UHGV virus genome: UHGV-0344222
DNA length: 39,491 nt
Direction: 5' to 3' (one strand)
From: a virus
Each line of letters begins with the position of its first letter. The stretch's first letter is position 1. Positions 3,376 through 15,025 of the stretch are shown piece after piece. The translations under genes were made by a program, and so were the position numbers. The notes under the pieces are model-generated. The model worked only from the letters and a program-made list of their open reading frames with translations. It was not told the origin of the DNA and ran no database searches.

Positions 3376-4137
3376 TTAGGAATCAAGGTCAGGTAGCATG
3401 ATTTTCTCAATCAACGTCAATGCCCTTTGGTCTCGTTCAGCAAAATATTTAGGAGCGTACTGAGGCAGCCACACTTCGTTGAAGTGTTGTTTGAAATCTG
3501 CAAGATATTCGTTTGGGTATAGACGTACCGGGAATGTCCGGCCATCTGGGTACTCATGGTTATATGTTGGGAATGTCTTCGGCTCAACCCCCCGGTTGTC
3601 ACGGAGCCATTGCGAGAAAACCCTACCCTCTGAAATATCAGGGACCATTTTTTCTGGCAGCGTATATCCGGCCTGTTCAAGTGGCGCAACCAAGTTAAAC
3701 GTCAGTTCATTAAGCATAGAAAAGTGCGTATGAGGAACTCTGCCTCGGTTTGTCATATACCGCTTAAGGTGGATAGGGAGTTCGGCAGGCGCTCTTTCAC
3801 CTGACATCCACTCACGCACCCATCTCGATACTTGCACTGCAAATTTTGGAGATAGCCACTGAGCTAAATTAATTGCGATGTCTGGATGAACCCAAGTCCC
3901 TTGATTCTCTGCTCTTCCGCCTTTAAATGATTGAATTAACTCCGATATGGGAATCCCCATATCGCGTGATAATTCATCAAAAAAATCTTGTGTTGTTTTT
4001 AGTCGTGTATAGTCAGCAAGTAGCTTCCCCGCAGACTTGCACATCGCGGTGGCATTGATGTATCCGTCTTTGGTGCGAAGATGGATGACTTCTCCATCAA
4101 CTTCTCTAGCGATTAATGCAAGTTGAAACTGTGTCAT
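3376..4137 (-). CDS. KilA-N domain protein at the rexAB-equivalent locus (BstA-like abortive-infection candidate)
   Basis: 253 aa; N-terminal KilA-N-type motifs (DGYINAT..., GTWVHPDIAINLAQWLSPKFAVQVSRWV); starts 31 bp after the cI stop, same strand, ends at the t-imm-like terminator. Confidence 0.75.
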   Translation of the reverse strand: MTQFQLALIAREVDGEVIHLRTKDGYINATAMCKSAGKLLADYTRLKTTQDFFDELSRDMGIPISELIQSFKGGRAENQGTWVHPDIAINLAQWLSPKFAVQVSRWVREWMSGERAPAELPIHLKRYMTNRGRVPHTHFSMLNELTFNLVAPLEQAGYTLPEKMVPDISEGRVFSQWLRDNRGVEPKTFPTYNHEYPDGRTFPVRLYPNEYLADFKQHFNEVWLPQYAPKYFAERDQRALTLIEKIMLPDLDS

Positions 4138-4168: not shown

Positions 4169-4885
<717 letters not shown>

Positions 4886-10430: not shown

Positions 10431-11513
10431 TTAGAACTGGTAAACCATACCTACAGCAACGATATCATCGGTAGCAACGCCAGATGCTTTCGTGAAATCG
10501 CTCTTATCAATCAGGTTGATTTTGTAGTCAACAAAAGTGGACATATTTTTGTTGAAGTAATAGGTTGCACCTACATCAACATATTCAACCAGGTCCTGAT
10601 CACCCCAAACACCCAAGTCTTTTCCTTTAGAATGCAGGTAAGCAACGGATGGACGCAGGCCGAAGTCGAACTGATATTGTGCAACAGCTTCGAAGTTTTG
10701 TGCTTTGTTGGCAATATGGTTATTACCAAAAACAGTCATGTTCTGGGTTTCAGAATAGGTGGTGGCCAGATAGATGTTGTTCGCATCATATTTCAGACCA
10801 GCTGCCCATACTTCAGCATTTTGACCAGAAGCATTCAGACCGTTGTTACCGTAGATAACCTGATTATTAGTGCGATCAGATTTAGCATAGGTTGCACCCA
10901 CGCCGAATCCTTCATACTCATAAGTAGTTGAGAAACCGAAACCATCGCCATTAGCTTCAGTTACTTCATTTCGGTCATTTTTGCCCTGATACTGAGCTGC
11001 AAAGTTCAGGCCATCAACCAGACCAAAGAAGTCGTTGTTACGATAAGTTGCAACACCTGTGGTGCGACCAGTCATGAATACATCTGTTTGGGTCCAGGTA
11101 TCGCCACCGAATTCTGGCAGAACGTCAGTCCACGCACCGATGTCGTATGCTACACCGTAGTTACGGCCGTAATCGATTGAGCCGTAGTCACCGAATTTCA
11201 GGCCTGCAAATGCAAGACGGGTTTTGTCTTTGGAGGAACCTTGAGATTCAGCGCGGTTGCCTTTGAATTCATATTCCCACTGACCGAAACCAGTCAGTTG
11301 ATCGTTGATTTGGGTTTCACCTTTGAAGCCAAGACGGGCATAAGTAGTATCACCATCATCTGCATCATTAGAGGAGAAGTAGTGCTTAGCATTAACTTTC
11401 CCGTACAGATCCAGCTTGTTACTGTCTTTATTATAAATTTCAGCTGCCTGAGCAGACATCGCCATCAGTACTGATGCAGCTACAGCAGAAATTGCCACTG
11501 TTAATTTTTTCAT
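10431..11513 (-). CDS. nmpC: Outer-membrane porin (OmpC/NmpC family), apparently intact
   Basis: 360 aa with signal peptide [23 protein letters not shown] and C-terminal ...MVYQF. Confidence 0.92.
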
Positions 11514-12101
11514 CGTGAGCCCTTTTTTTTGAACTATTATTAAAAAATGATGTCACTGCGCGATAAATATTCATCTAATCAATGTGATTATTTCAAGATG
11601 TAAGTTTTAGTTTCTCATTTAATTTGTGAAGTAGATCTCTATTTTTATCTGAACTTTTTCTATCGAAACCTATTTATGGCTCTTATTTGAACAAAAATAA
11701 ACCTATTAGCTAATTTATATTAATGGCTGTTATTTATGGGGGTTCTATAATTCGGCAGTTTAATTTAAATCAACTAAAAATAACCTCTGAAATTATTTAT
11801 TGGTTATTTGTTGAGGTTTTTTTATGTATTTGTGGTGGTGTTTTGAACACTCGGTAGCATTCTCATAAATATCATTCAGTGGTTTACGTACGTAAAAAAT
11901 TGGTTATGCTGTTAAGAGTGGTTACTTCGTCACACAGCTTAAACCCGCCGTCGAGCTGGTTTTTCCATTTTTTGAGTCTCGATATTAGCTGATAACTCAA
12001 TACCTGAGTTATTCACTGACTCCGAGTCTGTTACGTTTCTGCTTTTTTGCGATACGTTGTATTCCCTCAATTTACACCCGCTTTGTCTGCGAGGTGGGGT
12101 T

Positions 12102-12317
12102 ATGAAATCCATGGATAAGTTAACAACGGGTGTCGCCTATGGCACCTCAGCAGGTAGTGCCGGTTACTGGTTTTTACAGCTGCTCGATAAAGTCACGCCC
12201 TCACAGTGGGCAGCAATAGGTGTGCTGGGTAGCCTGGTATTTGGCCTGCTGACGTACCTGACAAACCTTTATTTCAAGATTAAAGAAGATAAGCGCAAGG
12301 CTGCGAGAGGTGAATAA
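12102..12317 (+). CDS. essD: Class II holin (phage-21 S-type pinholin) with dual start MKSM
   Basis: [31 protein letters not shown]... 71 aa. Confidence 0.9.
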
Positions 12318-12814
12318 TGCCTCCATCATTACGAAAAGCCGTTGCTGCTGCTATTGGTGGCGGAGCAATTGCTATAGCATCAGTGTTAATCACTGGCCCA
12401 AGTGGTAACGATGGTCTGGAAGGTGTCAGCTACATACCATACAAAGATATTGTTGGTGTATGGACTGTATGTCACGGGCATACAGGAAAAGACATCATGC
12501 TCGGTAAAACGTATACCAAAGCAGAATGCAAAGCCCTCCTGAATAAAGACCTTGCCACGGTCGCCAGACAAATTAACCCGTACATAAAAGTTGATATACC
12601 GGAAACAACGCGCGGCGCTCTTTACTCGTTCGTCTACAACGTGGGTGCTGGCAATTTCAGAACATCGACGCTTCTTCGCAAAATAAACCACGGTGATATC
12701 AAAGGCGCATGTGATCAGCTACGTCGCTGGACATATGCTGGCGGTAAGCAATGGAAAGGTCTCATGACTCGTCGTGAGATTGAGCGTGAAATCTGTTTGT
12801 GGGGTCAGCAATGA
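12317..12814 (+). CDS. rrrD: SAR endolysin (lysozyme with N-terminal signal-anchor-release domain)
   Basis: 165 aa; Gly/Ala-rich N-terminal TMD then lysozyme E...D...T catalytic region. Confidence 0.92.
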
Positions 12815-13248
12815 ACAGAGTAACCGCGATTATCTCCGCTCTGGTTATCTGCATCATCGTCTGCCTGTCATGGGCTGTTAATCATTACCGTGATAACGCC
12901 ATGACCTACAAAGAACAGCGCGACAAAGCCACATCCATCATCGCTGACATGCAGAAGCGTCAACGTGACGTAGCAGAACTCGATGCCAGATATACAAAGG
13001 AGCTTGCTGATGCTAACGCGACTATCGAAAGTCTCCGTGATGATGTTTCTGCTGGGCGTAAGCGGCTGCAAGTCGCCGCCTCCTGTGCAAAGTCAAAGAC
13101 CGGAGCCAGCAGCATGGGCGATGGAGAAAGCCCAAGACTTACAGCAGATGCTGAACTCAATTATTACCGTCTCCGAAGTGGAATCGACAGGATAACCGCG
13201 CAGGTTAACTACCTGCAGGAGTACATCAGGACGCAATGTCTGAAATAA
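12811..13248 (+). CDS. rzpD: Rz i-spanin
   Basis: [23 protein letters not shown]...; ATGA overlap with the endolysin stop. Confidence 0.85.
13010..13195 (+). CDS. rzoD: Rz1 o-spanin lipoprotein embedded in Rz (+1 frame)
   Basis: [20 protein letters not shown] with lipobox, Pro-rich mature part; AAGGA 8 nt upstream of the ATG at 13010. Confidence 0.7.
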
Positions 13249-13279
13249 TTTTTTTGCAAATCACAAAGTCCATTTAATG

Positions 13280-13305
13280 AGCCTCGCGATGCGGGGCTTT
13301 TTTGC
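13280..13305 (+). terminator. Rho-independent terminator after the lysis cassette
   Basis: AGCCUCGC-GAU-GCGGGGCU hairpin followed by TTTTTT. Confidence 0.6.
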
Positions 13306-13452
13306 AATAAATGCGTACCGCAACACATGTTTTTTTTACACCGAACCTGCCCCTTTGGAATGGGCCTTTGAGGATACCAGTTAGTGCTGGCGAGCCTCGG
13401 TGGGCTGGTTTCCTGTGCGGCAAAGGTTCATTTCAAATGGTAGGTAAACGTT

Positions 13453-13974
13453 ATGAATATCGTGCCACTTAATTACAAAGGTGAAATTGTCAGTTTCAAC
13501 ACTGATGGTTGGATCAACGTCACAGGTGTTGCTGAGAGATTTGGGAAACGCATTGATAACTGGATGCGTTTGGCAGAAACGCTTGAATACGTTCGTGCTT
13601 TAGACGAAGCGTTGACCGGGAAAGAATCTCAAATTTTACATCCCTCACAATCGAGGTATGTAAAAACCAGCAAGGCACGAAAGGACAGGGGTGGTGGTAC
13701 GTGGCTACATCCAAAACTTTCAGTTGCATTTGCCCGTTGGTGTGATGCTCGTTTTGCTGTGTGGTGCGACCTGCACATTGATAGTCTGCTTCGCGGTGAA
13801 CTGACTGAGCAGCAGAAATATGAGCAAGCATGTCGCATTCGCGATGACCGGAAATCAAAAGCCAGCAATGGGGCAAGAGAGATGGCTCGCTGGCGATGGG
13901 ATAAGCCGGTTATTGAAGCAAATGTTGAGTACTGGCGCGAGCAACTGCAGTTGACTCTCGATATCGCGTGCTGA
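13453..13974 (+). CDS. KilA-N domain protein (second copy of the fold; antirepressor- or exclusion-like) at the bor-equivalent locus
   Basis: 173 aa; motifs DGWINVTGVAERFGKR... and GGTWLHPKLSVAFARWCDARFAVWC. Confidence 0.75.
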   Translation: MNIVPLNYKGEIVSFNTDGWINVTGVAERFGKRIDNWMRLAETLEYVRALDEALTGKESQILHPSQSRYVKTSKARKDRGGGTWLHPKLSVAFARWCDARFAVWCDLHIDSLLRGELTEQQKYEQACRIRDDRKSKASNGAREMARWRWDKPVIEANVEYWREQLQLTLDIAC

Positions 13975-14323
13975 TGGCAAACGCAAAACTGCGTTATCGA
14001 AAAAATCAAAGCATTACTAGAACTGAGCAAAGGCTATCCATTACAAAGCCCATCTACGGGTGGGCTTGATAATGGCTTATACCCTGCACGGGATAACTTA
14101 ACTGATATCCCTTTTAACGGATAAAGGCATTCAAGCCTGACACATCATGCGCTGTATCGTCGCCGTATTCCCGCATTAACCATGACCGTAGCCCGACGGG
14201 GAATTCCTTCTGTGTGAGTGTGCGGGAATAATCAAAAACGATGCACACCGGGGTTACCGGGTACACATATTTCATCATGCCAGCGAGTCCGGTTCTGGCA
14301 CGGAAGAAACCGGACGTTATGAT

Positions 14324-14734
14324 TTAGTGCGGAAATATTTGTGTAGTGTTCTGAATGTTCTCAGTAAAGAGTAATGAATTATCAAAGGTATAGTAATACC
14401 TTTTGTTTTCGTGGATATTTGTAATCCATCTGAAAACCCCTGCTGTAGCAAGATTTTTCCTGTATTCGTAAAATGATAACTCTCCTGATTTGAATCCTTT
14501 TAATGTGGCTTCTATAAGGCATTTATTTTTTGAAAATCTTACATTTACAACCTTACCCTGTCCTTTTATTAAAACCGTATTATCGTTTTCAAGAACAAGA
14601 TGAATATTCTCTGTGGCTAAATAGTAAATGTAATGTGAGACATTGTGACGTTTTAGTTCAGAATAAAACCAGTGATAGTTTAAATTATTTCGCACTTTAT
14701 CGAATATTTGTTTAAAAATGGCAACCTGAGCCAT
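14324..14734 (-). CDS. Conserved lambda right-end protein of unknown function (137 aa)
   Basis: [11 protein letters not shown]... with GGAAGG SD; resembles the lambda right-arm ORF as I recall it. Confidence 0.7.
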
Positions 14735-14791
14735 TGTAGTACCTTCCATGTGATATGAGGGTACCTAGTCTGCACGATTATCTAAATTGCT

Positions 14792-15025
14792 TCAATCTGG
14801 TCTGACCTGCTTTCTGAGCAATTCAGTAATGTCACTCTTTTCTTTGTTTGCTTCAGGAGAAACTCTTTTTTCTGAGCACAGTCTCCGGCGGCAGGCTTCA
14901 ATGACCCAGGCTGAGAAATTCCCGGACCCTTTTTGATCAAGAGCGATGTTAATTTGTTCAATCATTTGGTTAGGAAAGCGGATGTTGCGGGTTGTTGTTC
15001 TGCGGGTTCTGTTCTTCGTTGACAT
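14792..15025 (-). CDS. Small ribbon-helix-helix-like DNA-binding protein
   Basis: 77 aa; NIRFPNQMIEQINIALDQKGSGNFSAWVIEACRRR resembles Arc/CopG-type RHH. Confidence 0.55.
   Translation of the reverse strand: MSTKNRTRRTTTRNIRFPNQMIEQINIALDQKGSGNFSAWVIEACRRRLCSEKRVSPEANKEKSDITELLRKQVRPD

Follow-up and report, generated by a model that had tools for sequence, protein, structure and literature searches.

Among the described systems, Rha, encoded by phages P22 (orf201) and phi80, is the closest functional analogue of the protein studied here. P22 rha belongs to the late operon, and its product impairs lytic growth when IHF is missing, according to a passage of PMC4936722, and the annotation text of phi80 rha reads "DNA synthesis inhibition in IHF- hosts". 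The paper "A window into lysogeny" contains no rha data. P22F, an 89-nt plus-strand RNA whose 3' end lies 6 nt 5' of the rha ATG, was reported in 2026 by a study of the small RNAs of P22 and described there as "partially overlapping ORF201, no known function" (PMC13397905). Its abundance was 0 RPM without infection, 2054 RPM in infected cells and 926 RPM in the vesicles of these cells, and its ends are those of small-RNA reads from this one study, which may reflect degradation (PMC13397905). Domain shuffling in the Bro network, as seen at the rha slot, has also been described (PMC10111431). BstA is a prophage-encoded defence protein of two-domain design with a KilA-N head (PMC8585504).

We analyzed a KilA-N gene that follows the lysis genes in a window of 39,491 nt (the whole stretch of DNA, UHGV virus genome UHGV-0344222). 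The features are collected in Table 1. The overall picture that we consider fairly probable is that of a late-expressed, two-domain DNA-binding protein of the Bro network which occupies the rha slot and is the KilA-N counterpart of P22 Rha. The identity, the architecture and the slot of the gene are held with much higher confidence than this picture as a whole.

Table 1. Positions of the KilA-N gene, its leader cassette and related features; window coordinates unless another sequence is named.
Feature	Position	Strand	Description
CDS, KilA-N + ORF11CD3 protein	13453..13974	+	173 aa, ATG start; 100% identical to HK544 gp62, ev099 gp69 and a protein of Salmonella phage Emek
KilA-N DNA-binding domain (aa 7-114)	13471..13794	+	Pfam PF04383, 77.5 bits against a cut-off of 23.8, E = 8.2e-22
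ORF11CD3-type C-terminal module (aa 118-172)	13804..13968	+	Predicted antiparallel two-helix hairpin
Intrinsic (rho-independent) terminator after Rz	13279..13303	+	Stem GAGCCTCGC / loop GAT / GCGGGGCTT + T-run; hairpin 13279-13299
Structured RNA leader	13349..13443	+	Consensus hairpin 13354-13437; 13359-13437 = P22F nt 1-79
Shine-Dalgarno AGGT	13442..13445	+	About 8 nt 5' of the ATG; paired in the MFE fold with ACCUGCC 13345-13351 at the hairpin base
3' flank travelling with the KilA-N gene in HK544 and Emek	13975..14125	+	Megablast covers query 1-876; common cassette stops at about 14125
First KilA-N gene ("rex-locus")	3376-4137	-	KilA-N E = 8e-27; adjoins cI-like repressor (4169-4882)
Leader-family copies	window 13349-13443 (+); P22 L007:2211-2305; phi80 L013:1897-1991, 3490-3570; P13374 L010:236-335, 1600-1696; L011:1499-1593; about 45 IMG/VR loci		

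The initial annotation had described a plus-strand ORF of 173 aa with KilA-N motifs, and our profile search agrees with it: the ORF is present with an ATG start, and the Pfam match spans profile positions 4-106 of 107 at a score above the cut-off (Table 1). The genes of HK544, ev099, Emek and the E. coli O104:H4, 55989 and E24377A prophages are the same gene, with nothing of substance that differs. The locus is 99.8-100% identical in these three E. coli prophages, and DNA identity is 98-100% across HK544, ev099, Emek and the E. coli prophage copies. A full-length locus, annotated as "KilA-N domain-containing protein", was found in 137 of 5426 complete E. coli genomes, and many P22-like Salmonella phages encode "KilA-N/DNA-binding" proteins that are 85% identical to the product. 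The gene occurs in differing mosaics with HK97-like, lambda-like and P22-like virion modules, and in many prophages of E. coli and Salmonella, that of the outbreak strain O104:H4 included.

At E <= 1e-3, 704 homologs were found in Enterobacteriaceae and Pseudomonas. The best 120 of the 704 are mostly 160-200 aa long and carry KilA-N and ORF11CD3 in precomputed Pfam. A homolog that matches along its full length is encoded by Pseudomonas phage D3: Orf11, with 44% identity over 98% of the protein. Orf11 has the same size, and its gene is likewise co-directional with late-operon genes; however, that gene is found between those for head-tail joining and for the tail rather than past the lysis genes, and its leader is unrelated. 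Because of these 704 homologs, the identical annotated proteins in three phages and a confident AlphaFold model (pLDDT 92.5, pTM 0.82, 40-sequence alignment), the ORF is clearly not a chance ORF; a lambdoid prophage carries it as a true accessory gene. Since it is a widespread Bro-network gene that has already been annotated, its novelty is low. What is added here is its equivalence to the rha slot, the common ORF11CD3 tail and a family-level definition of the P22F-like cassette.

The KilA-N part has an APSES-like alpha/beta DNA-binding fold, and in the AlphaFold model this N-terminal alpha/beta domain is followed by two long antiparallel helices (residues 118-137 and 141-172). The homology of this tail rests on profiles and on D3 Orf11, because the protein's own ORF11CD3 score is below threshold (PF10549, 16.2 bits, E = 0.013; cut-off 25 bits) and BLASTP against P22 Rha detected no similarity. 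Precomputed Pfam gives PF10549 for clusters that are 99-100% identical to the protein, and PHROG 518 ("Rha-like") matches aa 118-170. D3 Orf11, which going by its name is probably the protein behind the Pfam name ORF11CD3, combines KilA-N with an ORF11CD3 domain that scores 39.8 bits. When the family profile was compared with the C-terminus of P22 Rha by hhalign, the two aligned at the ORF11CD3 region of Rha (E = 4.3e-4). A motif, AS..G..LA.W..KP, is common to the 173-aa protein, D3 Orf11, the allele of phages 2851 and PhiR49_1, P22 Rha and ORF55 of phage P13374. The helical hairpin is probably an oligomerisation or partner-binding module. No NCBIfam model matches the protein, and the Pfam search at E <= 1 detected neither Phage_pRha (PF09669) nor an ANT, AntA or P22_AR_N/C domain.

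The window contains a second KilA-N protein, encoded at the rex locus (Table 1), with which the gene after the lysis cassette had been said to share the fold and not the sequence. This is roughly right for the domains; however, a weak similarity is detectable between them (27% identity over 95 aa, pairwise E = 5e-13). Their C-termini are unrelated, being BstA-like in the rex-locus protein (PADLOC BstA, E = 2.5e-20, aa 119-236) and of ORF11CD3 type here. Phage PhiR5_2 encodes a 100% identical rex-locus protein and the vB_EcoS-6xx phages encode one with 86% identity; from its domains, the protein is probably a BstA-family abortive-infection defence protein. The initial annotation had further linked the two genes, and we found nothing that supports a functional pairing: HK544, Emek, ev099 and SPN3UB-type phages are without the BstA-like gene, carriers of the BstA-like gene are without the gene at 13453-13974, and so the two assort independently among sequenced phages. 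Membership of the 173-aa protein in the BstA family was rejected as well. It shares with BstA the KilA-N head, the prophage origin and the two-domain design; however, it has no PADLOC BstA match and no BstA C-terminal domain, and its gene lies away from the repressor-proximal locus.

The lysis cassette 5' of the KilA-N gene is of P21/DLP12 type and consists of a holin (ending at 12317), a lysozyme (12317-12814) and Rz (12799-13248; Phage_lysis, E = 9e-36) with an embedded Rz1. The position after Rz and a terminator, as initially annotated, was confirmed, and so was the statement that lambda carries bor on the minus strand immediately 3' of Rz. The term "bor-equivalent locus" holds for position, since both genes are the first past Rz; however, bor is on the opposite strand, encodes an unrelated lipoprotein that is expressed in the lysogen, and shows no homology. 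The rha slot of P22, phi80 and ES18 is the better description. We compared slots by searching with the Rz-to-ATG leader as the query. In phi80, P22, ES18 and the O104:H4 Stx2 phage P13374, the gene order is Rz, terminator, leader and a Rha-type gene. The terminator is 93-100% identical in phi80, HK022, HK97, mEp and further phages, and window positions 13339-13437 are 99% identical to the P22 DNA directly 5' of rha. In 836 of 5426 E. coli genomes (about 15% of the complete genomes), the leader precedes a KilA-N or "Rha family" gene.

Several proteins occupy this slot. P22 Rha, when read from the ATG at L007:2315, and ORF55 of P13374 both combine Phage_pRha with ORF11CD3, whereas phi80 Rha has no detectable ORF11CD3 tail. 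Phages 2851 and PhiR49_1 and O157 prophages carry a second KilA-N + ORF11CD3 allele, which has an identical leader and an ORF11CD3 tail but is only 24% identical in protein sequence and, in 2851, is followed by an extra 85-aa ORF. Conservation of this allele runs to the ATG, and divergence starts directly past it. In HK022 and mEp234, a KilA-N + P63C protein is found past Rz and the same terminator; the head is 47% identical (HK022-type), while the P63C tail and the leader are different. In one and the same slot, the ORF11CD3 tail is thus combined with three or more kinds of DNA-binding head, and this suggests that the ORF11CD3-tailed slot proteins may have one effector function in common, with interchangeable targeting.

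The gene at 13453-13974 resembles rha in its slot, which lies in the late operon past the lysis genes and behind the common terminator and leader, in being a late-operon accessory gene and in its length of about 175 aa. In P22 the leader hairpin and the C-terminal module are also shared, and it is for the common leader and this module that Rha is named as the closest analogue. However, the head of Rha is the winged-helix Phage_pRha domain and that of the present protein is KilA-N, no pairwise similarity exists between the two, and IHF-dependent growth inhibition is known only for Rha. Membership in the Rha family (PF09669) was therefore rejected for want of the pRha winged helix, and the relation is a positional and architectural one: on sequence evidence, the protein is a head-swapped (KilA-N) counterpart of P22 Rha. 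An orphan KilA-N gene is thereby tied to a genetically studied locus, which offers concrete assays such as growth in an IHF-deficient host and DNA synthesis.

The initial annotation had regarded the gene as possibly lysogen-expressed. No sigma-70-like promoter was found on the plus strand of 13249-13452 by a scan for the sigma-70 consensus only. The gene is co-oriented with S-R-Rz and with Nu1-A, and its GC content (0.44-0.50) is akin to that of the lysis genes and not anomalous. The terminator is GC-rich and begins 31 nt past the Rz stop. Its hairpin is present in the MFE fold and was also found by a separate terminator script, the built-in consensus scan did not list it, and homologous sequences are annotated as terminators in HK544, phi80 and ES18. 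Morons are autonomous units of promoter, gene and terminator that are expressed in the lysogen; of their features, neither a sigma-70 promoter of its own nor a deviant composition was found for this gene, which has a terminator upstream instead. With these observations, and with an identical leader RNA in lytic P22 infection (PMC13397905), the idea of a lysogen-expressed moron is not supported. From the late-operon orientation and the upstream intrinsic terminator, and from the similar placement of D3 orf11 among late genes, we infer that the gene is more likely to be expressed late and in dependence on Q than in the lysogen, and the most economical reading is that the gene would be reached only by Q-modified RNA polymerase from pR'.

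The same evidence bears on the proposal that the protein is an exclusion or abortive-infection factor, made in the lysogen against superinfecting phages in the manner of BstA and replacing lambda bor. The slot does hold a lysogenic-conversion gene in lambda, the defence protein BstA does have a KilA-N head (PMC8585504), and a weak PADLOC match to the candidate system PDC-S22 covers the KilA-N region (E = 1e-5). However, a gene without a recognizable sigma-70 promoter, behind a terminator, in late-operon orientation and of ordinary composition does not fit such a role. In addition, the BstA C-terminal domain is absent from this protein and present in the rex-locus protein, and the same leader stands 5' of the late-operon gene P22 rha, where its RNA is seen only in infected cells. 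We consider this proposal quite unlikely.

We then return to the preferred reading, a late-expressed counterpart of Rha, and to its leader. On the plus strand, 13340-13470 forms a long hairpin (-49.8 kcal/mol, z = -3.06; 0 of 200 shuffles); the complementary minus strand is not significantly structured (z = -1.19), an asymmetry which comes from G.U pairs. The pairing of the Shine-Dalgarno sequence at the hairpin base (Table 1) is particular to the window allele; it is absent from the consensus structure and is not conserved across alleles. An AAGG(U) sequence is kept at the same position past the hairpin in about 40 copies. P22F nt 1-79 are 100% identical to the window leader over the interval in Table 1. 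By this identity the leader RNA has been seen experimentally in lytic growth; its detection in infected cells speaks for late transcription and for a hairpin that may be stable or processed.

Seven compensatory pairs were counted in the first 8 leader copies, and a covariance model (R1) was built from 7 copies. R1 scored the window leader at 105 bits, and on copies outside the training set it scored 53 bits for the phi80 rha leader, 38 bits for the P13374 "ant" leader and 35 bits for the leader of phi80 ORF PHI80_66. Folded alone, the phi80 and D3 leaders are not significantly structured; R1 still detects that of phi80 rha. When IMG/VR had been scanned with a pattern, 52 copies were detected with R1 at E < 1e-5. 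In an alignment of 47 distinct copies that was fitted to R1's own structure, 92.8% of the cells were paired (84.6% in shuffles, 31-50% in slid registers), compensatory changes were present in 16 of 33 pairs (reached by 0 of 500 shuffles), and the covariation score was 0.319 (0.169 in shuffles, 0.151 or less in slid registers). No Rfam family matches the leader, either at the gathering threshold or at E <= 5.

Almost all copies are followed by an ORF whose start, behind an AAGG(U) Shine-Dalgarno sequence, is 4-12 nt past the end of the model; the ATG in the window is 10 nt past this end. About 35 of 42 copies have an intrinsic terminator 42-56 nt upstream of the element, with stem sequences that differ among copies. 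One member of the family, P22F of P22, has been reported so far (PMC13397905). Our analysis places it in a widespread, covarying leader family which abuts the start of an accessory gene, usually at a fixed distance past a terminator. This position and spacing make a cis-regulatory role testable, and they point to over-extended rha starts. The annotated P22 rha (L007:2246-2851) has a GTG start inside the hairpin, and a well-placed Shine-Dalgarno sequence and ATG (L007:2315) lie past it. The annotated start of phi80 rha (L013:1963-2517) overlaps the leader, and a Shine-Dalgarno sequence and ATG are found 7 nt past the model end. From these sequences, the annotated N-termini are probably too long by 23 codons in P22 and by about 12 codons in phi80.

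A leader of another sequence precedes the KilA-N-P63C gene in mEp234 (L006:2887-2972) and in HK022-type phages. It forms a hairpin of about 85 nt (z = -2.7) with a CUGYGAG...GGCUC-like 3' arm, and R1 gave it a score of 9.5 bits, which is not significant. It would thus be a relative that has diverged very far, or else a structure that arose by convergence.

The genes behind the leader encode KilA-N proteins with ORF11CD3-like or P63C tails, pRha proteins with or without ORF11CD3, P22_AR_N + ORF11CD3 proteins and HNH_3(-AP2) homing endonucleases, and some phages have two leader cassettes. This range could be explained if the unit of terminator, hairpin and Shine-Dalgarno sequence were a selfish passenger, mobile by recombination at its conserved flanks like free-standing homing endonuclease genes, with a cargo of little or no benefit to the phage. 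The homing endonucleases that follow the leader besides the Bro-network genes, the mosaic joint exactly at the ATG, the free swapping of alleles and heads in the slot and the double cassettes would all be in accord with this. However, the protein family is large, its sequence and length are well conserved across Enterobacteriaceae and Pseudomonas and its fold is confident, which argues for selection on the protein, and to our knowledge KilA-N has no nuclease activity. That the gene is mainly a selfish passenger is therefore very unlikely.

One of the cassettes concerns antirepression. In P13374, a gene named "ant" (L010:236-911) lies between the lysozyme gene (R) and Rz, encodes P22_AR_N + ORF11CD3 and has its own terminator-hairpin-Shine-Dalgarno cassette; the second cassette of this phage carries the Rha-like ORF55 past Rz. 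The 173-aa protein might likewise be an antirepressor, which would inactivate the repressor of its own or of a co-resident prophage or satellite and so speed or spread induction. Proven antirepressors exist among Bro-network proteins, the P13374 "Ant" is found behind the same leader, induction is aided by the Ant proteins of Stx phages (PMC3064807), and antirepressors that act in trans have been reported for Salmonella (PMC3121763). However, the ANT, AntA and P22_AR domains are absent from our protein, expression from the late operon would follow derepression, and the Phi24B Ant of PMC3064807 is another gene at another locus. An antirepressor role is thus unlikely.

Under the preferred reading of a late Rha counterpart, the locus would work as follows. 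The terminator past Rz would block ordinary transcription, and the gene would join the Q-antiterminated late transcript and be transcribed in lytic growth only. The hairpin of about 90 nt just 5' of the start would limit or time translation or yield a stable small RNA; candidate modes of action are occlusion of a ribosome standby region, RNase III-type processing and 5' stabilisation. Processing of the RNase III type occurs at the lambda N leader. The KilA-N head would serve for targeting by DNA binding, and the ORF11CD3 hairpin for oligomerisation or for contact with a common partner. The protein would then act late in infection as a modulator of gene expression or of phage DNA replication, as Rha may do, and would be harmful when over-produced. 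Such harm in excess would explain the tight insulation by a terminator and a structured leader. That the protein has a Rha-like activity is conceivable by analogy, and we would not go so far as to call it probable. Because phi80 Rha, the best-studied one, is without a detectable ORF11CD3 tail, it may be the pRha head, absent here, that causes the Rha phenotypes.

For the cassette itself we tentatively suggest a general role, somewhat short of an even chance of being right. The terminator, a spacer of about 50 nt, the covarying hairpin of about 90 nt and the Shine-Dalgarno sequence with the ATG would form a portable, antitermination-gated cis-regulatory RNA unit with which lambdoid phages insulate and dose potentially toxic DNA-binding accessory genes, with possible RNase III-type processing to a trans-acting small RNA. 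Its cargo then looks like a set of KilA-N, pRha and P22_AR_N heads on ORF11CD3 tails, together with HNH homing endonucleases.

Since rha is reported to be IHF-regulated, we searched the leader for the IHF consensus and found none at up to 1 mismatch; counts over the whole window were at chance level. An exact IHF consensus, AATCAAAGCATTA, is present at 14004-14016, just 3' of the KilA-N gene. A hairpin at 14046-14067, inside the 3' flank, may terminate the leftward DUF3950-DUF1398-orf54 unit.

This leftward unit lies on the minus strand 3' of the KilA-N gene and comprises a 54-aa ORF, a DUF1398 gene (14324-14749, YbcV-like) and a DUF3950 gene (14792-15025, YlcI-like), after which Nu1 and terminase A come on the plus strand. 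Because its GC content falls to 0.31, the block (14114-15025) is a better candidate for a lysogen-expressed moron than the KilA-N gene, and it looks like a true moron.

On the other side of the lysis cassette, a complete porin gene of OmpC/OmpD/NmpC type (10431-11513, minus strand; Porin_1, E = 3.5e-152) lies in opposite orientation between the genes for the Q-like antiterminator and the holin, likewise in ev099 and PhiR49_1, and is flanked by a very AT-rich tract (GC 0.26 at 11500-11800). Near the end of the window, in or beside the tail-fibre assembly region, the plus strand at 38629-38827 matches the Rfam family IS009 (RF02111) with 221 bits (E = 3e-54).
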